A DNA stretch of 64,000 nucleotides from Nannocystis pusilla (lineage in GTDB: Bacteria > Myxococcota_A > Polyangia > Nannocystales > Nannocystaceae): assembly GCF_049337375.1 (NCBI RefSeq), contig NZ_JBMPIV010000001.1. One strand, given 5' to 3'. The notes beneath the pieces were generated by a model. The model saw nothing but the letters and a program-made list of their open reading frames with translations. It made no database searches and was not told the DNA's origin. Numbering within the stretch: position 1 is the first letter of the stretch; every line of letters starts with the position of its first letter. Position numbers and translations under genes: made by a program. Positions 1,275 to 56,963 of this stretch are shown here, piece by piece.

Positions 1275-1602
1275 GGTCCCATCTTCTCCTGACCTCTCGG
1301 CATGATCGAGGTCCTTCGGGCGCGCAAGGTGACCGAAATCCGTGCGGACGGGCGGACCCAGCCGTCTCCGTGTGCGGCCCGTTCGATGGCTCCACGGTTC
1401 GTGCGTCCGTCACACACACCCGGACCGAACGAGCAATGCCACGCGGCGCCGTCGCGCGCGTGGCCGGAATCTCGAAAGGAAATCGCGGCAGTGTGACGCG
1501 GGCGATGGCCGTCACACTGCCGCGATGACCCGGGTCCCACATCTCCGCCGCCGCGACTTGCAGACGGAGGAATCACCGACCCCGATCGCCGACTCGGGCG
1601 AT

Positions 1603-2397: not shown

Positions 2398-2401
2398 TAC
2401 A

Positions 2402-3310
2402 TCACGTCCGGACGTCGAGCGCGCCGGGGACGACCTCCAGCCGGCGCGGGTTTATCTTGATCATCTCGCCGTCGACCATGACGTCGATGTCCTCGGCGAG
2501 GCGGAGGTCGAGGCCGGGGGCCTGGTAGCAGCGCACGGCCGGGTGCTGCACGTGCGTGCCGCTGAAGATCTTGGGGAAGGTGCGCAGCAGGCCGACGCGG
2601 CCGAGGCGACCGACCCGGATGATGTCGAGCAGGCCGTCGCGCGTGTTGGCGTCGGGCGCCATCATCATCTTGCCGCCGGTGAAGCGGCTGTTGTTGAACG
2701 AGAGGAAGGTCAGCGGCTCGCGGTCCTCGGGGTGACCGTCGATCTGCATCGGGAAGGTGTAGGGCCGCAGCGCGGCCACCCGCAGCACGGTGCTCAGCGT
2801 GTAGCCGAACTCGCCCAGCGCCGAGAAGTTGCGGTTGCGGGTGGCGCCGACGTCGGCGACAAAGCCGATGCTGAAGATGTTGATGAAGTGCAGCGCGCCG
2901 CGGGTGTGCGTGCAACGAACGAGGTCGCACGGCCGGGTCTTGCCGGCGATGATCGCCTCGATCGCGTACTCGGCCCCCTGATCGGTGAAGTCGCGCAGGA
3001 AGGAGTTACCTGTCCCGAGGGGCAGCATGCCGAGCGACGGACGCTCGCCCGCCGGCAGCGCGCCGGAGAAGATGCCGTTTACCAGCTCGTAGCTGGTGCC
3101 GTCGCCGCCGACGGCGATAAAGTGGCGCCGGCCGGCCGCGACGGCCTCGCGCGCGAGCTCGGTGGCCTGACCGGCGGCCCGCGTCTCGACGACGTCGACC
3201 TTGATGCCCGACTGCCGCAGCCGGTCGACGACCGCGGGCGCCCGCTTGCCGCACACGCCGCCGCCGGCGGCTGGGTTGACGACTGCGAGGAGGGTGGCCG
3301 GATCGTGCAT
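2402..3310 (-). CDS. diacylglycerol/lipid kinase catalytic-domain protein (YegS/DAGK_cat family)
   Basis: GGDGT motif (FIAVGGDGTSYELVNG), N-terminal AVVNPAAGGG, overall DAGK_cat architecture. Confidence 0.75.
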   Translation of the reverse strand: MHDPATLLAVVNPAAGGGVCGKRAPAVVDRLRQSGIKVDVVETRAAGQATELAREAVAAGRRHFIAVGGDGTSYELVNGIFSGALPAGERPSLGMLPLGTGNSFLRDFTDQGAEYAIEAIIAGKTRPCDLVRCTHTRGALHFINIFSIGFVADVGATRNRNFSALGEFGYTLSTVLRVAALRPYTFPMQIDGHPEDREPLTFLSFNNSRFTGGKMMMAPDANTRDGLLDIIRVGRLGRVGLLRTFPKIFSGTHVQHPAVRCYQAPGLDLRLAEDIDVMVDGEMIKINPRRLEVVPGALDVRT

Positions 3311-3396
3311 GCGGGCATGCTATCAGGCCCCGGAGGGCCGTGGAGGGGCGGGTGGCCGCGGTTATGGGGCGTGAGCGGCGGTTGCCCCGCGGCGGT

Positions 3397-5112: not shown

Positions 5113-5346
5113 CTAGCGCCTCGCGTCGATCTTCTGCGCCAGCGCGGCGAAGGTCTTGATCCCCTGGAGCTCGTAGTCGGGCAGCTCGACGTCGAACTCG
5201 TCCTCGACGTCCGAGATGAGCTCGACGGCCTGGAAGCTGTCGATGCCGAGGCGCTCGAACAGGTCGTCCTCGGCGCGGAGCTGGGCCGGGTCGGCGCCGA
5301 AGCGCTTGGCGGCGAGACGGATGAGGGTGTCGAGGGAGGTGCTCAT
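5113..5346 (-). CDS. acyl carrier protein (discrete ACP)
   Basis: 77-aa acidic protein with a GIDSFQAVEL phosphopantetheine-attachment motif. ATGA start/stop overlap with the upstream hydratase gene. Only the 3' 234 nt of the 496-aa ORF-track frame is the real gene. Confidence 0.7.
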   Translation of the reverse strand: MSTSLDTLIRLAAKRFGADPAQLRAEDDLFERLGIDSFQAVELISDVEDEFDVELPDYELQGIKTFAALAQKIDARR

Positions 5347-6116
5347 GGCAGGTACGGTCTCAGGTCGGTGGACTCGACGAAGCGCTTGAGGGCGGCCAGC
5401 AGCGCCGGGCCCTCGGCGAGGCGGACGAACAGCTCGCGCTCGGCGAGCAGCTCGTCCTTCGGGAGCTTCTTGATGAAGGCCTTGGCGGCCTTGCGCGCGG
5501 TCGGGTCGAACTTGGCGGTCTGGGCCGCGAGCGCGCGCGCGGCCGTGATGCCCTCGCCGGCGGCCAGGACCTGGCTGACGAGGCCGGCCGCCAGCGCCTT
5601 CTTGGCGTTGATGCTGCGGCCGCTCAGCAGGAGGTCGCGGATGAGGCCGTTGCCGACGTCGCGGCGCAGCCGCGGGATGCCGCCGAAGCCGGGGATGATG
5701 CCGAGGCGCAGCTCGGGGAAGCAGAAGCGCGCGGTCTTCTCGGCGATCAGGACGTCGCAGGTGAGCGCGAGCTCGAAGCCGCCGCCGAAGCAGACGCCGT
5801 GGACGACGCCGACGGTGGTCAGCGGCAGCATGTCGAGGTCGTCCATGACGCCGTGGATGGCGTCGATGAACTGGCGGATCTGCGGGCCGTGCTGGTCCTT
5901 CGGCGCGTCGGAGAGGCCGCGGTAGAGCTCGCGCAGGTCGGCGCCGGCGCAGAAGCCCTGGCGCAGGCCGCTGCGCAGGATCAGCGTGTGCGCGTCGCGA
6001 TCGATCTGGTCGAGGAAGCGGCGCAGATCGGCGAGCATGGCCGTGCCGATCTCGTTGCACGGCGGCGTGGCGAGGGTCAGCTCGTACACGCCTTCGCTGT
6101 AGGTCCAGTCGATCAT
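5343..6116 (-). CDS. enoyl-CoA hydratase/isomerase (crotonase family)
   Basis: Crotonase fold motifs (FCAGADL, GGGFELALTCD). Start taken at MIDWTYSEG, which gives ATGA coupling to the upstream ligase. The longer ORF-track N-terminus is Arg-rich and looks spurious. Confidence 0.75.
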   Translation of the reverse strand: MIDWTYSEGVYELTLATPPCNEIGTAMLADLRRFLDQIDRDAHTLILRSGLRQGFCAGADLRELYRGLSDAPKDQHGPQIRQFIDAIHGVMDDLDMLPLTTVGVVHGVCFGGGFELALTCDVLIAEKTARFCFPELRLGIIPGFGGIPRLRRDVGNGLIRDLLLSGRSINAKKALAAGLVSQVLAAGEGITAARALAAQTAKFDPTARKAAKAFIKKLPKDELLAERELFVRLAEGPALLAALKRFVESTDLRPYLP

Positions 6117-7747
6117 GACGCGTAGGCCTTGTCGATCTCGGCGCGGTAGCGCTGCTCGACGGCGCGGCGGCGCAGCTTCTGGTTGGCGGTGAGGAGGCCG
6201 TTCTCGATCGTGAACGGCTCGGCCACGCGGATGAAGGCGCGGACCTTCTTGTAGTGCGGGACGCTGGCGTTGACGACCTCGAGGGCGGCGTCGATGGCGT
6301 CCTTGGGCACGTCCCCGGGGACGATGATGCCGAGGAACGGCCGCGCGTGGCCGACCAGCATGCACTGCTCGGCCTTCGGGCAGGCGGCGAGGAACTTCTC
6401 CTCGATCGGCTCGGGGGCGATGTTGTGGCCCGACTCGGGGACGAGGATGTTCTTGACGCGGCCGATGATGCGGACGTTGCCGGTGGCGTCGAGGTCGCCC
6501 TGGTCGCCGGTGTGGAACCAGCCGTCCTTGATCGCCTCGGCGGTGGCCTGCTCGCGGCCCCAGTAGCCGGCGAAGATGCCCGGGCCGCGCACCAGCAGCT
6601 CACCCTCGTCGGAGATCTTGATCTCGCAGCCCTGGATGGCGTGACCGACGTAGCCGGGGCGCACGCCGCCGGGGATGTCCATGGTGACGATCGCGGTGGT
6701 CTCGGTCAGGCCGTAGACCTGGTAGACCTGCACGCCGACCAGCTCGAACCACCACTGCGTCTCCTCGGCCAGCGCCGCCGAGCCGCAGATCAGGAACTCG
6801 AGGCTGGGGCCGATCTGCTGCTTGATCTTGCTGAAGACCAGCTTCTTGGCGGCGGCCAGCGTGAGCCTGTCCAAAAGGCCAGCCTTGCCCTCGCGCTCGG
6901 CGCGGAAGGCGGCCTGGCCGCGGTTGTACAGCGCGAGGGCGAGGCCGCCGCGCTCCGCGATCTTCTTGCCGACGCCGTTCTTGATCCGCTCGAGCACCGC
7001 CGGCACGTTGAGGTAGTAGTGCGGGTCGGCGGCGCCCATCTCGGCGACGAGGTTCTGCAGGTCGGTCGACAGCAGCAGCGGGTTGCCGCGGTACAGCTGC
7101 GTCCACAGCATGACGCGCGAGCCGGCGAAGCAGAACGGCAGGAAGTGGAACACCTTGTCGGCCCGCTTGCCGCCGGTGATGCGGTCGACGCTGCCGCGGG
7201 TCTGCGGCAGCATGTAGTCGACGTTGGCGCGGGTGAGGACGACGCCCTTGGGCTCGCCGCTGGTGCCGGAGGTGTAGATGATGGTGACCGGGTCGGTCGG
7301 CGCGACGGGGCGCGGCGGCTCGTGCACGGGCTCGCCGGCGAGGACGTCGAGCATGTCCTCGATCGGGCAGTGCTCGGGCCAGGCGTTGCGCAGGCCGGCC
7401 GCGAGCTCGGAGCCGTCGGCGATCACGAGCACCGGCGTGCAGTCCTTGACCATGACCGCCAGCTCCTTCGGATCCTGGCGACTGTAGAGCGGGACGACGA
7501 TCGCGCCCTCGAACAGGATGGCGAGGTCGGCGGCGACCCAGCGGGCCGAGTTGGGGGCGAGCAGGGCGACGCGGTCGCCCGGCTTGACGCCGTGGCTGCG
7601 CAGAAAGCCGCGCGCGTGGGCCACGAGGTGCAGCAGCTGCGCGGCCGAGGTCGGCCGGCGGTCCTTGCCGTGGAGCTCGATGAGGAGCTGATCCTCGCGG
7701 GTCTTCTGGACCGCGGCGTGGATGACTTCGAGGAAGTTGTCGCTCAT
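6113..7747 (-). CDS. AMP-dependent synthetase/ligase (fatty acyl-AMP ligase / acyl-CoA synthetase)
   Basis: IIYTSGTSGEPKGV AMP-binding motif. Start chosen at MSDNFLEV (ATG 7745-7747), overlapping the upstream stop as ATGA. Confidence 0.8.
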   Translation of the reverse strand: MSDNFLEVIHAAVQKTREDQLLIELHGKDRRPTSAAQLLHLVAHARGFLRSHGVKPGDRVALLAPNSARWVAADLAILFEGAIVVPLYSRQDPKELAVMVKDCTPVLVIADGSELAAGLRNAWPEHCPIEDMLDVLAGEPVHEPPRPVAPTDPVTIIYTSGTSGEPKGVVLTRANVDYMLPQTRGSVDRITGGKRADKVFHFLPFCFAGSRVMLWTQLYRGNPLLLSTDLQNLVAEMGAADPHYYLNVPAVLERIKNGVGKKIAERGGLALALYNRGQAAFRAEREGKAGLLDRLTLAAAKKLVFSKIKQQIGPSLEFLICGSAALAEETQWWFELVGVQVYQVYGLTETTAIVTMDIPGGVRPGYVGHAIQGCEIKISDEGELLVRGPGIFAGYWGREQATAEAIKDGWFHTGDQGDLDATGNVRIIGRVKNILVPESGHNIAPEPIEEKFLAACPKAEQCMLVGHARPFLGIIVPGDVPKDAIDAALEVVNASVPHYKKVRAFIRVAEPFTIENGLLTANQKLRRRAVEQRYRAEIDKAYAS

Positions 7748-9225
7748 GCGTGGCGCTCCAGCAGGCGCTGCACGTTGGCCGGCAGCGGCGGCAGGTGGGC
7801 TTCCCAGGTGCGCGGGAGGTCGCGCCGCGGGAACTCGGGGTAGACGCGCACGACCTCGTCCATGAAGTCGATGCCCATCTGACCCATGAGCTTCAGCTGG
7901 GCCGGGACGGCGCGGGCGATGTCGGCGCTGATGCCCTCGGCGTCGCGCCACAGGCGGCGCAGGGTGTGCAGCAGCTTGTCGCCGAGGTCCTCCTCGTCGA
8001 CCTCGAAGAACATGTCCGGGTGGCCGCGATCGTTCATGAGGTTGCGGATCCGCTCGTCCATGGTGACGCCGGCGGAGGGCACGAGGCCGGGCATCGAGGT
8101 GACGATCGCGTGGAAGCGCGAGCTTATCATCATGCTGCAGTTACGCAGCACGCTGACGAGGTCGTACATGTCGTGCTCGTCGCTGACGAACAGCGCGCCG
8201 CCGCGGTCGAGCCGCGGCTGCAGGTCCTCGCAGGCGTGGCGGTCGAGCTGCTCCATGCCGACGAGGATGGTGAAGAACTCGCGCTCCGCCGCGAAGGCGT
8301 TGACGCCGTCGGCCAGGGCCTGGATGTACGCGTTGTACTTCTTGTCGGCCGCTTCGCTGTGGTGGTGGAAGTAGAAGGCGCTGTAGTGCTCGTGCTTGTA
8401 CTGCCCGCCGAGCTTGTAGGCGGCGTACTTGAGCAGGTCGGGCTTGACCGGCCACCAGAACGGGTTGATCGGGCAGACGACGAGGACCTTCTGGCGGCCG
8501 TCCCAGCCGGCCTCGCGCAACAGCTGAGCGCCGCGCGACAGCGGCGCGGGCTCGAAGGTCCAGGCGGTGTCGGCCCCGGAGGTGGTGCGGATGCCGAGCT
8601 CGCCGAGGACCTTGCGCGAGGGCTCGTTGCGGCAGATCACCAGCGACTTCTTGCAGGCGTCGCGCACGAAGTCGCGGAGCGCCGGGGTCATGTTGCCGGC
8701 CTCGGCGCCGTAGCCGACGCTGATCTTGTTCTCGGCGTTGGCGAGGCCGAGCGACCCGGCCATGAAGCAGGTCAGCGCGCTCGAGAACTTCGACTTGAAC
8801 ATCGAGCCCTCGCAAGCGATGACGCCGTGGTGCTTCGGGCACTCGGTGGCGATGAACTTGGGGAACACCGCCGGCAGCTCGATCTGGTGGACGGCGCGGA
8901 AGTAGCCGCGCGTCAACTTGGGATCGACGGTCATGATCGTCAGCTCGAGCTGGTCGTCGCCGACGACGTGGCGCAGCTGGCGGATCATCTCCTCGACGCG
9001 GACGTCGGCGCCGGTGTTGCGCGTGCCGACGTAGCCGGCCAGCAGCAGCTTGAGCGGCTTGCCCGGCTTCCACGTCTCGGGCGCCATGCCGAGGACGTTG
9101 CGGACGGCGACGCCCTCGATGGCGGCGGCGACGGTGGCCTGGAGGGCGCGGTCGGGGTCGACGACGTCCTTGACCTTGTCCCAGATCTTGCTGGTGGTCT
9201 TCTTGACGGGTGCGCTCTTGGACAT
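7744..9225 (-). CDS. polysaccharide pyruvyl transferase family-like protein (CsaB/WcaK-like)
   Basis: N-terminal LLAGYVGTRNTGADV resembles the GYYGxxNxGD motif. C-terminal SRFHAIVTSMPGLVPS resembles the R-x-H-x-x-I motif of PF04230. Motif-only assignment. Embedded in the lipid operon. Confidence 0.45.
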   Translation of the reverse strand: MSKSAPVKKTTSKIWDKVKDVVDPDRALQATVAAAIEGVAVRNVLGMAPETWKPGKPLKLLLAGYVGTRNTGADVRVEEMIRQLRHVVGDDQLELTIMTVDPKLTRGYFRAVHQIELPAVFPKFIATECPKHHGVIACEGSMFKSKFSSALTCFMAGSLGLANAENKISVGYGAEAGNMTPALRDFVRDACKKSLVICRNEPSRKVLGELGIRTTSGADTAWTFEPAPLSRGAQLLREAGWDGRQKVLVVCPINPFWWPVKPDLLKYAAYKLGGQYKHEHYSAFYFHHHSEAADKKYNAYIQALADGVNAFAAEREFFTILVGMEQLDRHACEDLQPRLDRGGALFVSDEHDMYDLVSVLRNCSMMISSRFHAIVTSMPGLVPSAGVTMDERIRNLMNDRGHPDMFFEVDEEDLGDKLLHTLRRLWRDAEGISADIARAVPAQLKLMGQMGIDFMDEVVRVYPEFPRRDLPRTWEAHLPPLPANVQRLLERHA

Positions 9226-9235
9226 GTTCGAAGGG

Positions 9236-10381
<1,146 letters not shown>

Positions 10382-10385
10382 GGTG

Positions 10386-12071
10386 TCAGACGACCTCGGC
10401 GTGGGGCGCGGGCGCGGCCTCGGGCGAGCGCAAGCGGAAGGGGTGGCGCGGGGCGTAGCTCTCGGGGGTCTTGTTCTCGAACAGCGGGAAGCACCACTTG
10501 CGAAGCCCGGGGATGTGGACGTCGATCCAGTAGTGGCGCCAGTCGATGCTGCGCGGGTCGCAGTCCCACTCGGGCTCGACGACGGGGTGCCGCAGCAGGT
10601 TGCGGGTGACGAACGCGAAGTAGTTGTCGTGGATGAACGGCAGGTAGAGCTCGCACATGCGCTCGATCTTGTCGATCGCCTCGAGCGCGTCCTCGGTGTG
10701 CTCGACGAGGTCGCCGAGCCGGCGGCGGATGAACTCCGGCCAGCCCTTCGGCGGGTCGCGCAGCCACTCGTCGACCGACTCGGTCATCTTGCGCACGTTC
10801 TCGATCCGCATCGGGTGGTCGGGCGTGACGGCGATCGCGTCCCAGCGCGACTTGACGACGCGGTCGAGGGTGGTGTCGCCGCGGGTGCGCAGGTGCTTGC
10901 GGTGGGCCAGCGCGACCAACTCGACGGCGCGGTCGATGGTGAGGAGGTTGAGGTCCGAGCTGCCGCACTGGTAGACCGGCGCGTGCTCGCCCCGCATCAG
11001 CGCGGCGCCGGCGACGGTCATGCCGCGGCAGACGTAGTCGACCGGGATGATGTCGAACGGGTTGCCCCGCTTGCACGGCAGGTGGCGGAACCAGCTGCCG
11101 AGCGCGTAGCTCAGCGGGCCGCAGGTGTTGAAGCCCTGGTTCCACCCGGGGAACGGGTAGCTCATGGCGCTCTCGACGATCGCGGGGCGGAACATGCTCC
11201 ACCGGCCGGGATCGAGGCGGCGGGCGATCCACGCCTCGGCCATGTTCTTGGTGTACGTGTAGATGTTGGTGAAGCCCCAGCGACCGGCGCGGCGCTGGCC
11301 CTCGGCGACCATCGCGTCCTTCAAGAGGTTGCGCTTGATCCGGCGGGCGGTGTTGCGCACCAGCATCGCGTTGGTCTCGTCGCCGCCCTTTTCGCGGATC
11401 TGCTTGACCGCGTCGTCGTGGGCGCGCTTGTCCATCTCCGGCGACTCGTGCTCGGCGAGGATGGCGTCGATGCTGACCTGGACCTCGGCGCACTCGACCT
11501 CGACGTCGAACGGCTGGCCGTCGGGCGAGAGGTCGGGGCGGATGTCCTCGGGGATGAGGCCGTTCTTCTTGCCGGTGACGTAGCAGGTCGAGATGTGCAG
11601 CAGCACCGCCTTGTCGCAGGCGGCGACGAAGTTGGCGGCGTTGCGGGCGCCCTCGACGTTGGTCGTCATGGCGTCGCGCAGGTCGGGGTCGAAGTCGACG
11701 AGGCCGGCGCAGTTGATCACGAGGTCGATGTCGCGGCGCAGGCGGGCCAGCACCGCCGGGTCCTCGACGCCCATGTCGGGCAGCGAGACGTCGCCGGAGA
11801 CGACCTCGATCCGCTCGCTGATGAAGCGGCTCATGTCGGCGCCGTACTTCTCGTGCAGCGGGCGGAAGCACGGCGAGGTCTGGACCTGGCGCTCGAACCG
11901 GTCAGCGGCGGGGCGCAGCGCCTTCTTGCGGGTGAGCACGTAGATCTTGCCGACGTCCGGCACGTGCTGCAGGACCATCGCCAGCCAGACCTTGCCGAGG
12001 AAGCCGGTGACCCCGGTGAGCAGGACGTGGCGGCCGGCGTAGCTGTGCTTGATCGAGATCGGCGTGTTCAC
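10386..12071 (-). CDS. fatty acyl-CoA/ACP reductase (FAR family, long form with C-terminal extension)
   Basis: [17 protein letters not shown]-type NAD(P)-binding motif. 561 aa. Starts 5 nt after the short reductase gene. Confidence 0.7.
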
Positions 12072-12113
12072 GGGTGTCCTCCGGTTCCTGTCCCCAAGGT
12101 CAGTCGCGTAGTC

Positions 12114-12791
12114 TCAGTCGCGGTAGTCGATGATCGGCCAGTCGGCGTCCTTGGCGCTGCGGCGCAGGACGAAGTCGGGGTTGACGGCGCACGGCTTGCC
12201 GACGCGCGAGAGCAGCAGCATGTCCGGGCCGTGGGCGCCGTAGGCGGCGCAGCGCGCGAGCTCGAGGTCGTGCGCGGCGGCGTAGTCGTCGAGCCAGCGG
12301 CCGCCGACGTTCGAGCCGATGACCGGGTCGAGCAGCTTGCCGGTGGCCTCGCCGTCCTCGAACTCGATCTTGTTGTAGACGAGCTCGTCGTAGTGCTTGA
12401 GGTGACGCGCGAGCGGCTTCATGATCGGCTCGATGCTGTCCGACAGCAGCACGACCCGCCGCCCCTCGGCCTGCAGGCGCTTGAGCAGCTCGAGGCCCTG
12501 ATCGAGGATCGTGTCCTTCAGGACATCCTCGGCGTACTCCTCGCAGAGGACCTCGACGCGGTCCTGGCTCATGCCGCGGATGGCGAGGTGGGCGAGGCGG
12601 TGGGCCAGCGCGCGGTCGGTCTGACCGAGCAGGCGGTGGACCGGGGCGGCGAGGCCGACGAGGCCGAGGCGGACGGCCCGCTCACCGAACTTCTTGGCGT
12701 TGCCGGCCAGATAGGCCGCCGCGCTGAGCACGCCGCGGGCGAGCAGGATGCCTTCGACGCGGACGAATGCTGCCGTGTTGGTTTGTGTCAT
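12114..12791 (-). CDS. HAD-superfamily (HAD-IB, phosphoserine-phosphatase-like) hydrolase
   Basis: HAD-IB-like core (VVLLSDSIEP, K...NKIEFEDGEATGK, GDS-like) in the C-terminal 225 aa. Start chosen at MTQTNTAAF (ATG 12789-12791). The upstream ORF-track extension is low-complexity. Confidence 0.6.
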   Translation of the reverse strand: MTQTNTAAFVRVEGILLARGVLSAAAYLAGNAKKFGERAVRLGLVGLAAPVHRLLGQTDRALAHRLAHLAIRGMSQDRVEVLCEEYAEDVLKDTILDQGLELLKRLQAEGRRVVLLSDSIEPIMKPLARHLKHYDELVYNKIEFEDGEATGKLLDPVIGSNVGGRWLDDYAAAHDLELARCAAYGAHGPDMLLLSRVGKPCAVNPDFVLRRSAKDADWPIIDYRD

Positions 12792-12984
12792 CGACCAGGC
12801 TCGCGGCCTAGTTAGCGCACCCGAGGCCGGCGTTACAAGCATTCGCGTGGCGTCTCGAATGCCTGCGAAGGCCGCTGCGCACGCCGTTTTACGCGTGCAG
12901 GGGGCTTCGCAGGACGGGGCGCAGAGGGGGCCTGGCGCCGCTCCGCGGGGCTTTGGTGCGATGCGTAGCGAGCGGACGAGATGT

Positions 12985-13000
12985 TTACTCGCGCGAGTAA
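12985..13000. promoter_or_regulatory. 16-bp perfect palindrome TTACTCGCGCGAGTAA in a divergent promoter region (candidate operator)
   Basis: Lies in the comparatively AT-rich 256-bp spacer between the divergent starts of the lipid operon (12791) and mqnB (~13048). Confidence 0.35.
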
Positions 13001-13047
13001 GTAGTTGGCGCGGACGATTGGTCGTGCGTTTAAGAAATTGCTCCCGC

Positions 13048-13737
13048 GTGAGACCGGTCGGGGCGTCACCGGTGGGACGCGCGGCGAGGTGCGCTATCGT
13101 TGCGTCCGTGACCGCGCCGCTGCTCGTCTGCGCCGCCGAGGTCGAGGGCCGCGGGCTGCCCTCGGCGCTGCGCCTCGGCGTCGGCAAGGTGGCGTCGGCG
13201 GTGAGCATGACGCAGGCGCTGATCGAGCGCCGGCCCGCGTGGGTGCTGCTGTTCGGGGTCTGCGGCGCCTATCCCGAAGGACATGGCCCGGGAGGCAGGC
13301 TCGACGTCGGCGACGTGTGCCTGGTCGGCGAGGACTGGCTGGGCGACGAGGGGGTGGCGGTCGACGACGGCTTCCTGCCGCTGGCGCAGCTGGGGCTCGG
13401 GTCGGTCGGGCCGTTCGCAGCCGACGCGGGACGCACCGCCGCGGCGGCGCGAGTGCTCGCGGCGCCGGTGGTGCGCGGGGCGACGGTCAGCACCTGCAGC
13501 GGGACGGACGCGCGCTCGCGTGAGCTGGCCAGCGGCACGGGGGCCACGGTGGAGACGATGGAGGGGGCAGCGGTGGCGTGGGCCTGTCGGGCGCTCGGGG
13601 TGCCGTGGGTGCAGCTGCGCTGCGTGAGCAATCGAACCGGCCGACGCGCCGCGGGCGGGTGGGACCTGCCGCGCGCGGTGGCCGGCGTGCAGGCGGCGCT
13701 GCTGCGAATGCAGGCCGCGGACTGGGGGAACGAATGA
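13048..13737 (+). CDS. mqnB: futalosine hydrolase (MTA/SAH-nucleosidase family)
   Basis: PNP_UDP_1 / nucleosidase-like sequence (AIVASVTAPL...VLLFGVCGAY...ETMEGAAVA). Directly precedes and ATGA-overlaps mqnD. No ATG available, so start assigned to GTG 13048 (alternative GTG at 13069). Confidence 0.6.
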   Translation: MRPVGASPVGRAARCAIVASVTAPLLVCAAEVEGRGLPSALRLGVGKVASAVSMTQALIERRPAWVLLFGVCGAYPEGHGPGGRLDVGDVCLVGEDWLGDEGVAVDDGFLPLAQLGLGSVGPFAADAGRTAAAARVLAAPVVRGATVSTCSGTDARSRELASGTGATVETMEGAAVAWACRALGVPWVQLRCVSNRTGRRAAGGWDLPRAVAGVQAALLRMQAADWGNE

Positions 13738-49724: not shown

Positions 49725-49790
49725 CCGACGAACAGGTGTCCTCGAGGACAGGTGCGCGAGGACATGGCCGATGGGGCAGGTGTCAACCCT
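49725..49790. repeat. GACAGGTG/GGACATGG half-site cluster (GGACATGTCC family) in a convergent spacer
   Basis: gaacaggtgtcctcgaggacaggtgcgcgaggacatggccgatggggcaggtgtcaacc between the maf stop and the lipoprotein stop. Confidence 0.55.
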
Positions 49791-51015
49791 CGGGCGCGCC
49801 GAGCTTGTCGCCGACCTCGCACAGGAAGTGCGGGCTGCTCGCGCCTGTGTTCAACGCGAAGTAGCCGGTCAGGACGGGCGGCTGGACCTGAAGGTTCCAG
49901 TCATAGAGGAGCGAGCAGCCGGCGCAGTTGCCTGTGCCCGGCTGGCCGATGAAGATCTTGTCGGTGACCCAGTAGGGCATTACGACGTCGGGGGCCTGCG
50001 GATCGGGCTTCGCGGCCCACTGCGGGCAGTCCTCGCTGTTGAGCGGCTTGCTCTCGCAGCTGAGGCCGGGAGTGACCGGATAGATGCCCATGATCGACAG
50101 GTAGCCGGCGGCGTCGCTGTCGGCGGCGACGGTCGGGGGATAGTCGCCGTTGACGTGGACCGGGGCGAACTCGGCGGCGCTCGCGGCGGTGACCGCGGCC
50201 CGCAGGTGCTGCTGGGTGCGCGGGGAGAACAGGCGCAGGCCCCATGAGGCGCACTTTTCCTCGGCTTGCGCCGCGGTGAGCGGCTCGCCGATGAACTTGT
50301 CCGGCTCCGGCGGGTTCGGGACCAGCGTGCCCGAGGCGTACTTCAAAAAAGTGTAGCCGCCGCCGTCGGCCTGCATGTCGCACCAGACGGTCAGCTGCCT
50401 GTCCAGACGACGGATCGAGTAGAGGCCGGTCTCGGCCGCGTCGCCCCAGCCGGTCCGGATGTCGAGGCACGAGGTCGCCTGCGTGCAGTCGGGGAGGCAG
50501 CCGTACATCGGCTCGGGGTCGTCGCAGACCTCGCCGTCGGCCGCCTGCAACGTGCCGTCGCCGCAGTGGGGGGAGAAGTCCTTGCAGTACTTGCCGCAGT
50601 GGCCGTAGGTGCCGTTCTTGCCCTTGCCGTCGTCGCAGACTTCGTCGCCGGTCTCGATCAGGCCGTCGCCGCAGATGTTCCAGCGGCACGAAGAGGTGCA
50701 CGTGCGATCGTCGCCGTTGGCGTCGCCCTCGTCGCACTGCTCGGGCACGTCGATCTTGCCGTTGCCGCACGGCGCGGGCGTCGGGTCGCCGGTCGAGCCG
50801 CTGTCGCCGTCGCTGCCGCCCGGATCGACGGTGGTGGTCATGATGCCGGGAAAAGTGGTGCCGCTGCTGCTGCCGTCGCCGCCGCCGGTCGACGCCTCGA
50901 CCGCGGTCGGATCGATCTGCCCGCCGTTGCGATCGAGACAGCCCGCCAGCATCAGAGCAACAGCGACGCGCCAGTCGACGCCCACCCGGATGCGAAGAGG
51001 GATGCGTGCGTGCAT
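49783..51015 (-). CDS. lipoprotein with Myxococcus-type cysteine-rich repeats and a possible fibrinogen-like C-terminal domain
   Basis: LMLAGC lipobox. Three or more CGNG/CGDG...CDDG units (TIGR02232-like). WCDMQADGGGYTFLKY resembles the fibrinogen C-terminal motif. Confidence 0.55.
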   Translation of the reverse strand: MHARIPLRIRVGVDWRVAVALMLAGCLDRNGGQIDPTAVEASTGGGDGSSSGTTFPGIMTTTVDPGGSDGDSGSTGDPTPAPCGNGKIDVPEQCDEGDANGDDRTCTSSCRWNICGDGLIETGDEVCDDGKGKNGTYGHCGKYCKDFSPHCGDGTLQAADGEVCDDPEPMYGCLPDCTQATSCLDIRTGWGDAAETGLYSIRRLDRQLTVWCDMQADGGGYTFLKYASGTLVPNPPEPDKFIGEPLTAAQAEEKCASWGLRLFSPRTQQHLRAAVTAASAAEFAPVHVNGDYPPTVAADSDAAGYLSIMGIYPVTPGLSCESKPLNSEDCPQWAAKPDPQAPDVVMPYWVTDKIFIGQPGTGNCAGCSLLYDWNLQVQPPVLTGYFALNTGASSPHFLCEVGDKLGAPEG

Positions 51016-51145
51016 GCGACTCGTTCCCGCTGCCGCTGAGGGAACAATGGGAGCGGGCAAATTGCAACGTTGCACACGCAACCACCCGGCGCCGGCCTCG
51101 GCCGCGCGATTGACTAAAGTGCAAGCTGGATTACAAAGCTTGCAG

Positions 51146-52345
51146 TCACTCGCTCGGCGCGGTGACCCGCTGCGGCTGCACGCGAGAGCTCCGCAGCATG
51201 TCCTGGAACGGGTTGTCGTCGCGCCAGACGTCGCCCGCGAGCATGCTGATGAGGCCGCGCCGCAGCTGGGGGTCGGGCGTGCGGGCGAAGAACAGGTGCG
51301 ACACGAGGCGCGTGTGGTAAAAGCGGCGGATCAGCTGCTCGAAGCTGTCGTAGGCGACCTGCATGGTGGCGTGGACCGGGGCCATGAGATCGGCCGCGGC
51401 CTCGCGGCCCTCGGCGAGCGCCGGGACGAGGAGGTCGACGGTGCGCTCGGCGCCCAGCATCGCCAGCGAGACGCCCGACGAGAACACGGGGTCGAGGAAT
51501 GCGCAGGCGTCGCCGACGCAGGCCCAGCGCGGGCCGGAGGGGCGGGTGTTCTTGTAGCTCCAGTTGCGGATCGTCCGCGTGGCGCTGCGCGTGGCCCCGG
51601 CGGTGAGCCGGCGGCACAGCGGCGAGGCGGCCAGGGCGGCCTCGAAGGCGTCGTCGTCGAGCTTGCCCCGCCACTTCACGAGGCCGACGCTGAGCCGACC
51701 GCCGTGCATGGGGATGAGCCAGTGCCAGCCGTCCTCGACGATCAGCACCTTGATGTTGCCCTGCTCGCCGAGCTCGGCGCGGACCTCGGGCGAGAGATCG
51801 TCGAAGTGGCAGAAGACGGCGGCGCGCCCGAGCTCGTGCAGCGGGGCGATCGTGCGGGCGCCGCGGCCGAGCATGGCGTCCTGGCCGGTGCAGTCGAGGA
51901 GGAAGCGGGCCCGGTGCTCCTCGCGGTCGGTGACGACGCGGACGTGATCGGCGGCGAACTCGATGTCGCGCACGCGCTCGCCGAAGCGGATGTCGGCGCC
52001 GCGGCTCGTGGCGACGTCGCACAGCATGGTGTCGAAGGTGGCGCGGTCGACCTGCCAGGCGTGCGAGGGCGTGCCCTCGAGGCCGTCGGCGAAGCTGAAG
52101 AAGGCGAACTCGCCGGTGCGCTCGTCGATGAACTCGGCGCCCTGCTTGAACTGCCAGCGCGCGCGATCCATGGCGACGCCGAGGCGGGCGAAGATCGGCA
52201 GGTCGATCGGCAGCAGCGACTCGCCGATGTGGAAGCGCGGGAACACGTCCTTGTCGAGCGTGACGGCCCGGACGCCCGCCTGCGCGAGCAAGTTGGCGGC
52301 GGTCGATCCGGCCGGGCCGGCCCCGACGATCAGGACGTCGTGCAT
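51146..52345 (-). CDS. flavin-dependent halogenase-like FAD monooxygenase
   Basis: GAGPAGS FAD-binding motif. GWHWLIP (GWxWxIP) and FLDPVFSSGVS (FxxPxxSxG) motifs, both characteristic of flavin-dependent halogenases. Confidence 0.6.
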   Translation of the reverse strand: MHDVLIVGAGPAGSTAANLLAQAGVRAVTLDKDVFPRFHIGESLLPIDLPIFARLGVAMDRARWQFKQGAEFIDERTGEFAFFSFADGLEGTPSHAWQVDRATFDTMLCDVATSRGADIRFGERVRDIEFAADHVRVVTDREEHRARFLLDCTGQDAMLGRGARTIAPLHELGRAAVFCHFDDLSPEVRAELGEQGNIKVLIVEDGWHWLIPMHGGRLSVGLVKWRGKLDDDAFEAALAASPLCRRLTAGATRSATRTIRNWSYKNTRPSGPRWACVGDACAFLDPVFSSGVSLAMLGAERTVDLLVPALAEGREAAADLMAPVHATMQVAYDSFEQLIRRFYHTRLVSHLFFARTPDPQLRRGLISMLAGDVWRDDNPFQDMLRSSRVQPQRVTAPSE

Positions 52346-52352
52346 GACCGGG

Positions 52353-53075
52353 TCATACCATGCCGCCGTTGATGCCGATCACCTGACCGGTGATGTACGC
52401 GGCGGCGTCGCTGGCCAGGAAGGCGACCAGCGCGGCGACCTCGGGGGCGGTGCCGAGCCGCTGCGCGGGGATCCGCGGCATCACGTGGTCGAGCGGGACG
52501 TCCTTGATCATGTCGGTGTCGACGAGGCCGGGCGAGACCGCGTTGACGGTGACGCCCTTGCGGGCGAGCTCGAGCGCCAGCGATTTGGTCGCGCCGATGA
52601 CGCCGGCCTTGGCCGCGGCGTAGGCGACCTGCCCGCGATTGCCGAGCTGGGCCGAGACGGAGCTCATGGTGATGATCCGGCCCCACTTGCGCCGCACCAT
52701 CGGCATGATCACCGGGCGGGTCACGTTGTAGAAGCCGCCCAGGCTGGTCCGAAGGACAGCTTCCCAGTCGGCCCGCTCGAGCGCGGGGAACGGGGCGTCG
52801 CGGGCGATCCCGGCGTTGTTGACGAGGACCCCGAGCGGCCGCGGGTCGGCGAGGATGGCGTTCATCGCCGCGTCGGCGGCCGCGTCGTCGCCGACGTCGA
52901 AGCGGCTGAGGACGACCTCGCCGCCGGCGGCGCGGATCCGGGCGGCGACGGCCTCGGCGGCGGCGTCGTCGCTGCGGTAGTTGAGGATGATGGGGTGACC
53001 GGCGGCCGCGAGGGCCTCGGCGATCGCGGCGCCGATCCCTCGACTGGCGCCGGTGACGAGCGCGCGTGGCTTCAT
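52353..53075 (-). CDS. fabG: 3-oxoacyl-[ACP] reductase (SDR)
   Basis: TGASRGIG, NNAG, S...Y...K catalytic triad (SSVSAQLGNRGQVAYAAAKAG). 240 aa. Confidence 0.85.
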   Translation of the reverse strand: MKPRALVTGASRGIGAAIAEALAAAGHPIILNYRSDDAAAEAVAARIRAAGGEVVLSRFDVGDDAAADAAMNAILADPRPLGVLVNNAGIARDAPFPALERADWEAVLRTSLGGFYNVTRPVIMPMVRRKWGRIITMSSVSAQLGNRGQVAYAAAKAGVIGATKSLALELARKGVTVNAVSPGLVDTDMIKDVPLDHVMPRIPAQRLGTAPEVAALVAFLASDAAAYITGQVIGINGGMV

Positions 53076-53521
53076 GCGGGGCTCCCTGCGGAGGTGCTGG
53101 GTGGGGCGGTGGAGACGACGGAGAGCACGGCCTCGGCCAGCGGCTGGCCGCGGCGCGTGACGGCGGCGCGGTACTCGGCCATGGCGCCGGCGAACACGCG
53201 GGTGGCGACGATCTGCAGCGGGTCGCCGACGGCGAGGTGCTCGGCGTGCAGGTCGAAGTTGCGGCAGGCGGCGATGAGGCCGAGCGCCGGCGGCTGATGG
53301 TCGGCGCGCGCGCGCAGGCCGGCGAACGCGGCGATCGCCTGGGCCATGTACTCGAGCAGGACCGAGGCGTGGACCCGGCCGTCGACGACGAACAGGTTGT
53401 CGGGGCGGACCTGCGCGGCGCAGGTGATGTCGTCGGCGCCGGCGGCCACGACCTCGTCGAGCAGCAGCATCGGCGGGCGCTGCGGGACCAGCTCGGCTAC
53501 CGGCGGGAAGGCGGCGGTCAT
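53072..53521 (-). CDS. hotdog-fold 3-hydroxyacyl-ACP dehydratase-like protein
   Basis: 149 aa. Pattern typical of FabZ/ApeI-like dehydratases (PPMLLLDEV...H..VLLEYMAQ). ATGA coupling on both sides. Confidence 0.6.
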   Translation of the reverse strand: MTAAFPPVAELVPQRPPMLLLDEVVAAGADDITCAAQVRPDNLFVVDGRVHASVLLEYMAQAIAAFAGLRARADHQPPALGLIAACRNFDLHAEHLAVGDPLQIVATRVFAGAMAEYRAAVTRRGQPLAEAVLSVVSTAPPSTSAGSPA

Positions 53522-54321
53522 GCCCCGGCTCCGAGCGTGCACTGCCAGCCGACCGCGAGGTGCGGCTCGAGGGCGACGCGCGCCGGGGCGCCGGCGGCCA
53601 GCGCCTCGACCAGGGCGAGCGCGGCGGCGCACGGGTTCTGGGCCAGGGCGGCCGGGATCGGGCGCGGCGCGGCGAGCATGTCGCTGGGGCCATGTTCGAG
53701 GCGACATGTCCTCGCGGGCATGTTGCCGGGGCCAGGCGCCGACAGGGCGAAGGCGGCGGCGAACGGGTCCCAGCGGCGGCCGGCGGCCAGCGGCTCGGGC
53801 AGCGGCTCCTCGGCGATCACGAGCACCACGTCGCCCTCTCCGGCGGCCACGAGGGCGGCGCACTCGACGAGGCCCATGGCGAGGGTGCTGCGGCCGGCCG
53901 ACAGCGCGGCGTTGCCGGCCCGGTTGCCGGTGGCGATCGAGACGTAGCCGGCGGCCGTGTTGTGGACGCTGTTGTGGAACTTGGTCGGCGACAGCGGCTC
54001 GCCGGCGACGAGCAGGGCGCCGAGGAGGTCGAGGGTGGTGCGGATCTCGCCGTAGACGGAGCCGTAGACGAGGGTGGCGGCGGTTCGGTCGACGCCGCCG
54101 TCCTGCAGCGCCTGGGCCGCGACCTCGGCGGCCATGCGGGTGAGCAGGCTGGTGCGCCGGCGCATCATCGGCGGCAGCAGCTCGGCTCTGGGGGCGGAGG
54201 GCTCGGTCGGCGACGCCTGTCCTTCGGGCCAGGTGTCGGGCCGGGCCCGCCAGGCGGCGAGGTCGGGGTAGCCTGGCGTCCAGAAGCCGAGGCCGCGGAC
54301 GGTGAAGGCGAGCGCGCTCAT
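53518..54321 (-). CDS. β-ketoacyl synthase-like chain-length-factor protein (no active-site Cys)
   Basis: KS N-terminal-domain-like sequence lacking the TACSSS Cys. Position directly after a bona fide KAS. Contains a GGACATGTCC-type element in frame. Confidence 0.6.
   Translation of the reverse strand: MSALAFTVRGLGFWTPGYPDLAAWRARPDTWPEGQASPTEPSAPRAELLPPMMRRRTSLLTRMAAEVAAQALQDGGVDRTAATLVYGSVYGEIRTTLDLLGALLVAGEPLSPTKFHNSVHNTAAGYVSIATGNRAGNAALSAGRSTLAMGLVECAALVAAGEGDVVLVIAEEPLPEPLAAGRRWDPFAAAFALSAPGPGNMPARTCRLEHGPSDMLAAPRPIPAALAQNPCAAALALVEALAAGAPARVALEPHLAVGWQCTLGAGA
53686..53760. repeat. GGACATGTCC-family element lying inside the CLF-like coding sequence (in frame)
   Basis: catgttcgaggcGACATGTCCtcgcgggcatgttgcc encodes ...GNMPARTCRLEHGPSDML... 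within the protein. Confidence 0.5.
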
Positions 54322-54354
54322 GCCGGGCCTCGGACGAGGCGTGGGGCCGGAGCT

Positions 54355-54500
54355 GAACTTTTGGACATGGCCCGGAAGACCTGCCCGAAAGCGCAGCCGA
54401 CCGGACCCGATGTACGACCCGTGGCGGTCGGGCCGCAGAGGCGCAGCCGGGGAGGTGTCGTGGGGGACATGTCCCGGGAGACCTGTCGGAAGGTGCTCAT
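54355..54500. repeat. GGACATGTCC-family cluster in the 176-bp KS-CLF spacer
   Basis: ttGGACATGGCCcggaaGACCTGCCcgaa ... gggGGACATGTCCcgggaGACCTGTCggaagg. Confidence 0.65.
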
Positions 54501-55678
54501 GCGGGGCCTCCGACGAGGACGCTGCAGTTGCTGCCGCCGAACGCGAACGAGTTGCTGAGCGCGGCGCGGGTGCGGACGTCGCGGCGGGCGGTGACCACGT
54601 CGACCGCGAGGGTGTCGTCGAGCGGGTCGGCGCCGACGCTGGCGGGCAGGTAGCGGCCGGCGATGGCGTCGATCACGAAGGCGACCTCGGTGGCGCCCGC
54701 GGCCCCGAGCATGTGGCCGGTGTAGCCCTTGGTGGCGACCACCGCGGGCGCGGGGGCGCCGGCGAACACGGCCCGGATCGCCGCGCTCTCCATGCTGTCG
54801 TTCTGCTTGGTGCCGGTGCCGTGGGCGTTGACGTGGTCGACGTCGGCGGCGGAAAGGCCCGCGTGCCGGAGCGCGCGCTCCATCGCCAGGCGCGCGCCGA
54901 GGCCCTCGGGGTGCGGGCTCGTCATGTGGTAGGCGTCGGAGCTCTCGCCGACCCCGAGCAGGCGGGCCGGGCCGTCACCTGTCCGTTCGACCAGGAGCAG
55001 CGCGGCGCCCTCGCCGATGTTGATGCCGGCGCGCTCGCTCGAGAACGGGCGACATGGCCGCGAGGACAGGACCTCGAGCCCGGCGAAGCCGCGCACGGTG
55101 AGGCGGCACAGGCTGTCGACGCCGCCGACCAACACCGCGTCGCACAGGCCGGCGGCGAGCAGACGCTGGGCCGAGGCGAACACCTTGGCGGACGAGGAGC
55201 AGGCGGTCGAGACGACGTAGGCCGGGCCGCCGAGGCCGCCGCCGAGGACGCGGGCGACGTGCAGGACGGCGTCGAGGGCGTGCGAGGTCTCGACGTCGTA
55301 GTCGGCCGGGAGGGCGCCGCCGTGGGCCTGCGCGTGGGCGTAGGCGGTCTCGCTGGCCTCGATGCCGCCGGTGCTGGTGCCGAGGACGACGGCGACGCGG
55401 TCCGAGCCCCAGCGGGCGCGCGCGCGGTCCAGCGGGGCCTGCAGCTCGGCCAGCGCGACGGCGGCGATCCGCGTCTGCCGGGTGTCGCGGACCGGGCCGA
55501 GGAAGCCGGGCAGCGGCGGCAGCGGGGTCGGGATGGCGCCGACGACCGCGTCGAGCTCGAACTCGGCGGGGCACGGGCCGAGGCCGGAGCGACCGGCACG
55601 CAAGGCCGCGAGCACCGCGGCGGTGCTGTCGCCCATGCCGTTGCACAGGGCCATGGCGGTGATGGGGTACGGCTGCAT
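54497..55678 (-). CDS. β-ketoacyl-[ACP] synthase (KAS I/II-like)
   Basis: Active-site Cys motif VSTACSSS. His motifs (HMTSP, NAHGTGT). C-terminal FAFGGSN. Confidence 0.85.
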   Translation of the reverse strand: MQPYPITAMALCNGMGDSTAAVLAALRAGRSGLGPCPAEFELDAVVGAIPTPLPPLPGFLGPVRDTRQTRIAAVALAELQAPLDRARARWGSDRVAVVLGTSTGGIEASETAYAHAQAHGGALPADYDVETSHALDAVLHVARVLGGGLGGPAYVVSTACSSSAKVFASAQRLLAAGLCDAVLVGGVDSLCRLTVRGFAGLEVLSSRPCRPFSSERAGINIGEGAALLLVERTGDGPARLLGVGESSDAYHMTSPHPEGLGARLAMERALRHAGLSAADVDHVNAHGTGTKQNDSMESAAIRAVFAGAPAPAVVATKGYTGHMLGAAGATEVAFVIDAIAGRYLPASVGADPLDDTLAVDVVTARRDVRTRAALSNSFAFGGSNCSVLVGGPA

Positions 55679-55703
55679 GACGGCGAGGGCGGGACGCGGC
55701 CGA

Positions 55704-56963
55704 TCAGAGGCCGGGGGCCGGGAAGGCGCGCAGGAACTCGCGCACGCGGCCGCGGTGGACCTCGCAGCGAGCGTCGTCGGCGTTCTCGACGGCGAGGGCG
55801 ATGCCGTCGGCGATCAGGTCGGCGACGACCGGCATGTGATGCGCCTGGATGCCGCGCGAGGTGATGGCGGCCAGGCCGATGCGCAGGCCCGAGGGGTCGA
55901 ACGGCTTGCGCGGGTCGAACGGGATGGCGTTGGCGTTGAGCTCGATGCCGCAGCGGTTGAGCACGCGCGCGACGTGGCGGCCGCCCTGGCCGGTGGGCGT
56001 CAGATCGAGGAGCAACAAGTGGTTGTCGGTGCCGCCCGACACGAGGACGTGGCCGCGGGCGATCAGGGCCTCGGCGAGGGCCTGGGCGTTGGCGACGATC
56101 TGATGCGCGTAGTCGCGGAAGCTCGGCTGCAGCGCCTCGCGGAAGGCGACGGCCTTGGCGGCGGTGGTGTGGCAGTGCGGGCCGCCCTGCAGGCCGGGGA
56201 ACACGGCCTTGTCGATCGCGGCCGCGTGCTCGGCCTTGCTGAGGATGAGGCCGCCGCGCGGGCCGCGGAGCGTCTTGTGCGTGGTGGTGGTGACGACGTC
56301 GGCGTGCGGCACGGGGCTCGGGTGCGCGCCGCCGGCGACGAGGCCGGCGATGTGCGCGATGTCGGCCGCGAGGTAGGCCCCGACCTCGCGCGCGATCGCG
56401 GCGAAGCCGGCGAAGTCGAGCTGGCGCGGGTAGGCCGAGTGACCGACCCAGATGAGCTTGGGGCGGTTGGCGAGCGCGAGGCTGCGGACCTCGTCGAGGT
56501 CGATGCGGTGGTCGTCGCGGCGGACGCCGTACTGGACGGCCTTGTAGTAGATGCCGGTGGCGCTGACCTTCCAGCCGTGGGTGAGGTGACCGCCCGCGGG
56601 GAGGGCCAGCCCCATGATGGTGTCGCCGGTCTGGCACAGGGCGAGCAGCGCGGCGAGGTTGGCCGGCGATCCGCTGTAGGGCTGGACGTTGGCGTGATCG
56701 GCCCCGAACAGCTCGCGCGCGCGGGCGATGGCGAGGGACTCGATCGGGTCGACGAAGTCCATGCCCTCGTAGTAGCGCTTGCCCGGGTAGCCCTCGGCGT
56801 ACTTGTTGGTGAGGCTGGTGCCGGTCGCGGCGAGCACGGCCTTCGACACGTAATTCTCGCTGGCGATGAGGCGCAGGCTGTCGCGCTGGCGCGCGTCCTC
56901 CTGCTCGATCAGCGCGAAGATCTCGGGGTCGGCGGCGGAGAGCTCGGGATCGCGGGCGTGCAC
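55704..56963 (-). CDS. glyA: serine hydroxymethyltransferase
   Basis: [19 protein letters not shown]-Lys motif. Full-length SHMT conservation. 419 aa. Confidence 0.9.

Follow-up and report, generated by a model that had tools for sequence, protein, structure and literature searches.

The question raised by this locus is whether five adjacent genes of the myxobacterium Nannocystis pusilla specify a small pathway of their own or one part of a larger one. The genes, at positions 51146-55678, lie in a stretch of 64,000 nucleotides (contig NZ_JBMPIV010000001.1 of assembly GCF_049337375.1, G+C approximately 72%), referred to here as the window, and are predicted to encode a ketosynthase (KS), a chain-length factor (CLF), a dehydratase (DH), a ketoreductase (KR) and a flavin-dependent halogenase. 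A preliminary description, made from the sequence alone, had read them as a small, compact pathway resembling a type II polyketide synthase (PKS) or aryl polyene (APE) system. The current work suggests that the five genes are most probably the polyketide-core half of a split APE cluster of the flexirubin/xanthomonadin type. The APE-like type II PKS part of the earlier reading is borne out, since the KS is ApeO-like, the CLF ApeC-like and the DH ApeP-like, and homologues of these genes lie within complete APE clusters. The words "small" and "compact" do not hold for the pathway, because the cassette appears to be the core half of a canonical cluster that was split, and the accessory genes form a second locus in two relatives.

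All five open reading frames (ORFs) were confirmed and are co-directional, as first described; all lie on the minus strand, which is one of the small details to be amended in the earlier description. In the direction of transcription, they are the KS (54497-55678, 393 amino acids, an ApeO-like elongating ketosynthase), the CLF (53518-54321, 267 amino acids, truncated and ApeC-like), the DH (53072-53521, 149 amino acids, an ApeP-like hot-dog subunit of a 3-hydroxyacyl-acyl carrier protein (ACP) dehydratase), the KR (52353-53075, 240 amino acids, a FabG-type 3-ketoacyl-ACP reductase similar to ApeQ) and the halogenase (51146-52345, 399 amino acids, of the clade that occurs in APE clusters). Between the end of the KS gene and the beginning of the CLF gene lies a spacer of 175 nt (54322-54496), which had been given as a repeat-bearing spacer of 176 bp; the repeats are present and only the size differs. 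As read from the sequence, the CLF stop overlaps the DH start, and the DH stop the KR start, as ATGA. An ATGA-coupled trio had indeed been reported, yet it was placed at the three 3'-end genes, while the coupled genes are the middle three, CLF, DH and KR. The reported gap of 7 nt between the KR stop and the halogenase start (52346-52352) is correct.

Both N- and C-terminal Pfam ketoacyl-synt domains are present in the KS, which passes the NCBIfam model PRK09185 (442 bits, cutoff 407) and fails both fabF TIGR03150 (223 bits, cutoff 494) and FabB PRK07967 (127 bits, cutoff 630). The catalytic triad Cys159-His286-His321 is intact, and the ACSS, HGTGT and GHM motifs are present. The closest solved relative is 6QSP_A with 256 bits, and the top FabF reaches only 170 bits. 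The CLF belongs to Pfam PF13723 Ketoacyl-synt_2 (E=7e-41), and its top matches in the PDB, 7F28_A and 6QSP_B, are partner chains of ApeO-type KS. We take 6QSP to be the complex of ApeO and ApeC from Xenorhabdus doucetiae and 7F28 to be its equivalent from Acinetobacter baumannii. A KS/CLF heterodimer is predicted from the gene pair, and an ApeO-ApeC heterodimer has been described in A. baumannii (PMC8358021). A grouping of this pair with the housekeeping FabF/FabB, which had been named beforehand as a sign against the PKS reading, is contradicted by the PRK09185 and fabF scores and by the ApeO and ApeC chains found as best relatives.

The DH matches the ApeP-like family PF22817 of Pfam (40 bits, cutoff 27), and its best PDB match is 6QSR_B, one chain of what we take to be a two-chain ApeI:ApeP complex. 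Each of 29 aligned ApeP-like sequences keeps the Glu in its (L/I)E.MAQ helix, and no His is conserved among them. Such a subunit would require an ApeI-like partner; in Nannocystis bainbridge, this partner may be the domain that is fused to a ligase at the other locus. The KR passes the FabG model PRK05653.1-5 of NCBIfam (326 bits, cutoff 273), and its next matches, FabG2 TIGR01831 and then the flexirubin protein FlxB (273 bits, cutoff 340), are both below their cutoffs. The catalytic residues S138 and Y152xxxK156 are intact, and TGASRGIG and NNAG are present.

The halogenase matches Pfam PF04820 Trp_halogenase with 102 bits (cutoff 21), and its PDB relatives are 3NIX (the best), the halogenase 8ZOP, CndH (3E1T), PltA, ChlB4 and CmlS. 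It contains GAGPAG at residues 8-13 (GxGxxG) and the two halogenase motifs claimed for it earlier, WHWLIP at 207-212 (WxWxIP) and FLDPVFSSG at 283-291 (FxxPxxSxG). K67, within WQFKQGAEF, aligns to residue 76 of CndH (3E1T_A). We assume that K76 is the catalytic lysine of CndH, placed after the GES(L/A) strand, with K79 as the counterpart in PrnA/RebH, and that 3NIX is a Cytophaga hutchinsonii protein. Across 15 aligned homologues, with identity down to 54%, none of GAGPAG, K67, WHWLIP and FLDPVFSSG varies. Weaker matches to the geranylgeranyl reductase family of NCBIfam were also obtained. Judged from these motifs, the flavoprotein is predicted to be a flavin-dependent halogenase of the CndH/PltA/CmlS-like branch. 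The preliminary description had named loss of the catalytic lysine as a second sign against its reading; since the motifs and K67 are present and invariant, and the KS/CLF pair is not of the FabF/FabB type, neither of the two signs was seen.

The layout of related loci shows what kind of cluster the cassette came from. For part of this comparison, one genome per species was scanned, and 80 loci, drawn from at least 600 candidate stretches and none of them from a Nannocystis genome, were annotated locally. The closest named homologue of the halogenase, with 91% identity, is found in N. bainbridge, where the locus (L001, contig JAQNDL010000004.1) has its genes in the same order as the window: trpE, kinase, glyA, KS, CLF, DH, KR, halogenase, DUF4215, maf. 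The five genes are also found, followed by one or two genes for DUF4215/GGGW lipoproteins, in L002/L003, L005-L008 and L089, with halogenases 56-81% identical to that of the window. Across the compact loci, in which halogenase identity ranges over 56-93%, all ORFs are intact. An ACP profile, built from four ACPs, was run on the window and on seven related compact loci with 10 kb flanks, and no ACP, ligase or exporter was found within 10 kb of those seven. In the window, the profile matched only in a lipid-type operon, so that the earlier statement that the cassette contains no ACP, and that the sole ACP of the window is in that operon, is correct.

Other relatives contain the same core genes in contiguous clusters. 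The metagenome-assembled genome (MAG) of a Myxococcaceae species (L004, halogenase 57% identical) has a complete one, with KS-CLF-ApeP-KR-KS2-halogenase, DUF3261, MMPL, LolA, ammonia-lyase, LPLAT, GT2, AMP-ligase/ApeI and ACP. In Enhygromyxa salina SWB005 and DSM 15201 (L012, L013) and Nannocystaceae ST9 (L009), the contiguous order is (TAL)-LolA-MMPL-DUF3261-KS-CLF-DH-KR-KS2(ApeR)-halogenase. In a neighbour-joining tree, the halogenases of the compact cassettes are one clade nested in the halogenases of APE context from Myxococcota. Because of this single clade and of the DUF4215 neighbour common to all compact loci, the compact cassettes trace to one ancestral event. In three MAGs, of Planctomycetota, Polyangiales and Deltaproteobacteria (L010, L011, L017), the local annotation detected only KS-CLF-(DH)-KS2-halogenase, and neither a KR nor export genes were seen in the flanks; halogenase-bearing APE clusters may thus exist in further partial or rearranged layouts.

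The genes missing beside the compact cassette were found elsewhere in cassette-bearing genomes. With the MMPL exporter of E. salina as the query, orthologues of approximately 52% identity were found in N. bainbridge, N. punicea, N. pusilla and Nannocystis sp. RBIL2. In N. bainbridge, the accessory half is on contig JAQNDL010000002.1, apart from the cassette on JAQNDL010000004.1, and consists of ACP, a protein of 196 amino acids, AMP-ligase/ApeI-like, GT2, LPLAT, aromatic lyase, 4HBT thioesterase, LolA, MMPL and DUF3261, in this order. Unrelated genes on the opposite strand come next, and no KS, CLF, DH, KR or halogenase is present there. The MAG GCA_020633335.1, of a distant member of Myxococcales, has a cassette on contig 10 (L006, halogenase 61-62% identical) and an accessory half on contig 4 (L100), with the same content as in N. 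bainbridge and the same end after DUF3261; no ApeI-like domain was found by Pfam in its ligase. A third accessory half, in a Nannocystis-like MAG (L090), likewise ends at DUF3261. In the records of this MAG (L089/L090, ENA ERZ1066136/ERZ1066137), 106,299 bp is given as the length of the longest contig for the halogenase and for the exporter alike, and the exporter is at the end of NODE_61_length_106299. The two halves may therefore share one contig there, at a distance above 10 kb and below approximately 100 kb. A search for ACP, adenylation and ammonia-lyase genes had been proposed at the outset, and these are exactly the genes that form the second locus in two related genomes.

These layouts suggest that, in an ancestor of the clade, the cluster broke precisely at its DUF3261|KS junction, that the split is old, and that both halves were retained. 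That the pieces are complementary and that both were kept is the main argument that the two halves still work together. Comparison of coding sequences with N. bainbridge points in the same direction of maintained genes, with dN/dS of 0.12 for glyA, 0.19 for the KS, 0.08 for the KR and 0.27 for the halogenase; values of 0.50 for the CLF, 0.55 for the DH and 0.65 for the DUF4215 protein were also obtained. All of these ratios are inflated, because synonymous divergence is compressed at a G+C of 97% at third codon positions (GC3).

If the halves act together, a pathway can be proposed. An aromatic ammonia-lyase of the second locus would supply a hydroxycinnamate starter, which the AMP-ligase, to which an ApeI-like domain is fused in N. 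bainbridge, would put on the dedicated ACP. Initiation of flexirubin through a tyrosine ammonia-lyase together with a ligase (PMC3992019) parallels this loading step. The KS/CLF of the cassette would then extend the starter with malonyl units, and in each round the KR and the ApeP-like DH, probably partnered by the ApeI-like domain from the other locus, would turn the beta-keto group into a trans double bond, yielding an ACP-bound aryl polyene. The halogenase may chlorinate or brominate the phenolic ring, probably on the carrier-bound substrate. The thioesterase, the LPLAT acyltransferase, GT2 and LolA/MMPL/DUF3261 of the second locus would serve in release, lipid anchoring and outer-membrane export.

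Several points weigh against a working split cluster in this strain. Out of the parts of a complete APE cluster, the window lacks a dedicated ACP and ApeH-type ligase, LolA/MMPL/DUF3261, LPLAT/GT2 and ApeR, and searches by tblastn and phmmer with the full Myxococcaceae cluster as the query found no APE accessory genes in its 64 kb. The second locus is thus extrapolated to this genome from N. bainbridge and one distant MAG, although by analogy with them it is probably present here too. No product has been observed, and halogenation, with either halide, is a prediction. The CLF and DH evolve more freely than the other cassette genes, with dN/dS near 0.5, and in this genome an insertion breaks the ancestral translational coupling of KS and CLF. 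Finally, an ApeR-type second KS, the initiating enzyme, was not found in either half of N. bainbridge, nor in the accessory half of GCA_020633335.1. Its position in contiguous relatives, between KR and halogenase, is reduced to the 7 nt gap in the window, and a search with ApeR of E. salina gave no Nannocystis-named protein among the best 120 matches, a list that ends at approximately 58% identity and has many nameless entries. In vitro work cited in PMC8253772 is reported to have found ApeR to be needed for initiation. In E. coli, apeR was the only gene that could be deleted with the main APE lipid still being made, and it may be dispensable (PMC8253772); the loss of ApeR is therefore compatible with a working pathway.

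The alternative that survives best is a self-contained mini-pathway, in which the housekeeping fatty-acid ACP or that of the lipid operon would serve the five enzymes and the halogenated product would be an unsaturated fatty acyl chain or a short polyene, with no APE accessory locus involved. It would account for the absence of ACP, ligase and export genes within 10 kb in eight compact loci, the window included, and for a neighbourhood of its own, with the DUF4215 lipoprotein, that was kept over long evolutionary distances; moreover, AcpP of E. coli has been suggested as a partial substitute for one APE ACP (PMC8253772). It is nevertheless unlikely. Both of the cassette genomes that could be checked hold an exactly complementary second locus that ends at the ancestral DUF3261|KS junction, and the lipid-operon genes are unlike APE accessory genes. 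The DH, moreover, has no conserved His, its solved relative is one chain of an ApeI/ApeP pair, and an ApeI-like domain is encoded elsewhere in N. bainbridge.

Less probable still, and improbable in itself, is that the cassette is the decaying remnant of an APE cluster and gives no product in this strain. A broken cluster without ApeR, a KS and CLF uncoupled by an insertion of 179 bp, and dN/dS values of 0.5-0.55 for CLF and DH would all fit decay. Where ApeP-like dehydratases have the N-terminal motif "LPH", the Nannocystis clade has "VPQ" (residue 13 of the DH). Inactivation by this change of His to Gln was considered and rejected; Gln is found at that place in contiguous clusters of Planctomycetota (L027, L028) too, and the change is therefore probably not inactivating. 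Against decay, the five ORFs are full length with intact catalytic residues, and the genes are intact in every sampled lineage, with halogenase identity down to 56%. Purifying selection on the KS, KR and halogenase is similar to that on glyA, and the insertion duplicated the KS/CLF junction, so that the contexts of the KS stop and the CLF start were both preserved.

A third alternative shares the ancestral split with the reading as a core half. The cassette could have gained a role of its own in this Nannocystaceae clade after the split. Having lost ApeR and being permanently tied to a fast-evolving DUF4215/fibrinogen-like lipoprotein, it could make a halogenated polyenoic acyl chain on a housekeeping ACP, as a free lipid or as a modification or ligand of that surface lipoprotein next to it, in place of a classical outer-membrane aryl-polyene pigment; this seems very improbable. 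That the five genes are merely extra housekeeping copies of FabF/FabB, FabZ and FabG beside a non-halogenating FAD monooxygenase or reductase is scarcely credible: PGAP-style models would call the KR "FabG", the halogenase orthologue of N. bainbridge is named merely "NAD(P)/FAD-dependent oxidoreductase" and the geranylgeranyl reductase family is weakly matched, but the KS is far below the fabF/FabB equivalog cutoffs and passes PRK09185, the CLF is a truncated PF13723 protein whose solved members are ApeC chains outside the FabF/FabB set, WxWxIP and the catalytic Lys are invariant in the halogenase, and homologues sit in complete APE clusters.

The cassette belongs to the very widespread and well-studied APE family and is not a new compact PKS. 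The APE clusters of E. coli CFT073, X. doucetiae and A. baumannii (ApeA-ApeS) contain the same ApeO/ApeC/ApeP/ApeQ set for chain building, and the E. coli order ApeL-M-N-O-P-Q-R corresponds to LolA-MMPL-DUF3261-KS-...-DH-KR-KS of the contiguous relatives (PMC8253772). Compared with these three systems, the Nannocystis lineage is split into two distant loci, its CLF directly follows the KS instead of standing at the start of the cluster, a halogenase is present and no ApeR-type second KS was found. An aromatic ammonia-lyase, and not 4-hydroxybenzoate, is the probable source of the starter, and in N. bainbridge the second-locus ligase carries the ApeI-like domain as a fusion.

The xanthomonadin cluster of Xanthomonas is likewise a type II PKS system for an aryl polyene with a halogenase gene. 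Xanthomonas pigments are brominated, while Lysobacter has no halogenase gene and its pigment has no bromine isotope pattern (PMC3691225). Halogenase homologues of Rhodanobacteraceae and Luteimonas are 36-41% identical to that of the window, and some of them (L045, L048, L062 and L064) have APE genes close by. For xanthomonadin, a XanB2-type enzyme makes the starter, 3- or 4-hydroxybenzoate (PMC3949708), whereas the second locus of the Nannocystis relatives encodes an ammonia-lyase. Xanthomonadin genes are, moreover, described in the cited papers as a gene cluster, whereas the Nannocystis lineage has two loci, and halogenase identity is approximately 40%. In the flexirubin cluster of Chitinophaga pinensis and other Bacteroidetes, initiation by ammonia-lyase and ligase (PMC3992019) matches the second locus of the relatives, and FlxB is the third-best NCBIfam match of the KR, although below its cutoff. 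The dialkylresorcinol genes DarA/DarB of that system are not seen in either half, and the host here is a myxobacterium, not a member of Bacteroidetes.

Also among the closest systems are the halogenase-bearing clusters of E. salina and ST9, which are of the same family and have the same order, KS-CLF-DH-KR-(KS2)-halogenase after DUF3261. Their halogenases are 53% identical to that of the window and adjoin the compact clade in the tree. They differ in being contiguous and in keeping an ApeR-type KS between KR and halogenase, and in ST9 there is no DUF4215 gene downstream. APE clusters of E. salina have been reported by antiSMASH analysis (PMC6226438).

Three things are unusual in the Nannocystaceae clade: the cluster is stably divided between two loci, ApeR appears to have been lost, and a DUF4215 lipoprotein is the constant neighbour. 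The cited APE examples are described as single contiguous units, whereas this clade keeps two distant pieces. Genome mining of single loci could score such a cassette as an odd, incomplete "arylpolyene" and miss its partner. Recognising the split guards against over-reading the cassette as a new mini-PKS, and it names both loci that would be needed in cloning for heterologous production. A chlorinated or brominated aryl-polyene pigment is predicted for Nannocystis on this model; none was found in the literature searched. Because the lineage appears to lack ApeR, it may also offer a natural test in vivo of whether the initiating KS is dispensable, as the deletion study in E. coli hinted.

The spacer between KS and CLF is peculiar to this genome among the loci compared at the junction. 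In N. bainbridge, ATGA is the overlap between the stop of the KS and the start of the CLF, and the MAG L089 has the same overlap of 4 nt; relative to both, the window carries an insertion of 179 bp, which is probably recent, since it is absent from these two relatives. Copies of the 24-nt KS/CLF junction lie at its two ends (54316-54339 and 54495-54518, 92% identical), and two direct copies of the 21-nt sequence CAGGTCTYCCGGGMCATGTCC lie in the interior. The RNA fold of the spacer is mildly stable (z = -2.4). A known RNA or a repeated mobile element was considered and rejected: Rfam gave no match to the spacer, and no second copy of the 155-bp insert was found in the window or in the compared loci. 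A metagenome scan recovered only a core motif of 21-30 nt, in nine contigs; three of the nine (L091, L093, L097; approximately 70% GC) have longer context in common, which hints at a small repeat family. An open frame of 60 codons spans the ATGA of the KS stop to that of the CLF start. It was rejected as a new gene; its GC3 of 0.75, compared with 0.95-0.98 in genes, makes it look non-coding.

Upstream of the cassette, and on the same strand, is glyA (55704-56963, minus; serine hydroxymethyltransferase, Pfam SHMT E=4e-150). Only 25 nt (55679-55703) separate its stop from the KS start, and the same arrangement is found in N. bainbridge and the MAG L089. Because of this short gap and common arrangement, the glyA promoter may serve the cassette as well, by read-through. 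In more distant relatives, glyA also lies close by, but there it is downstream of the cassette and on the other strand. A scan for promoters and terminators gave no usable result in this DNA of 72% GC.

The lipid-type operon mentioned above lies 46 kb away, at 1600-13200 on the minus strand. From the translations of its ORFs, it seems to include a possible acyltransferase, a diacylglycerol-kinase-like gene, an AMP-ligase (3397-5112), the ACP, a crotonase-like gene, a second AMP-ligase, a protein of 493 amino acids and two NAD-dependent reductase-like genes. The ACP, at approximately 5113-5345 within the ORF 5116-6705 (minus), is the only match to the ACP profile in the window. The operon was considered as the missing APE half and rejected, because its genes have no similarity to APE accessory genes; it may instead be an ether-lipid or fatty-alcohol pathway.

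Downstream of the halogenase is the gene for a cysteine-rich lipoprotein with a fibrinogen-like GGGW domain and DUF4215 (49783-51015, minus), with weak matches to GGGWT_bact and myxo_disulf_rpt of NCBIfam. The gap between the two genes is approximately 65 nt from the first start codon, or approximately 130 nt from the ATG that matches the start in N. bainbridge. This lipoprotein gene is directly 3' of the halogenase in every compact locus (L001-L003, L005-L008, L089), sometimes as a tandem pair, and strain ST9 has none downstream of its contiguous cluster. The protein evolves rapidly, with 67% amino acid identity to N. bainbridge, compared with 91-97% for its neighbours. Just past the halogenase stop, at 51110-51145 on the minus strand, an unusually AT-rich hairpin, TGCAAGCT-N9-AGCTTGCA, precedes CTTTAGTC. 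This hairpin could be a weak terminator that closes the operon before the lipoprotein gene, and it is partly conserved in N. bainbridge.

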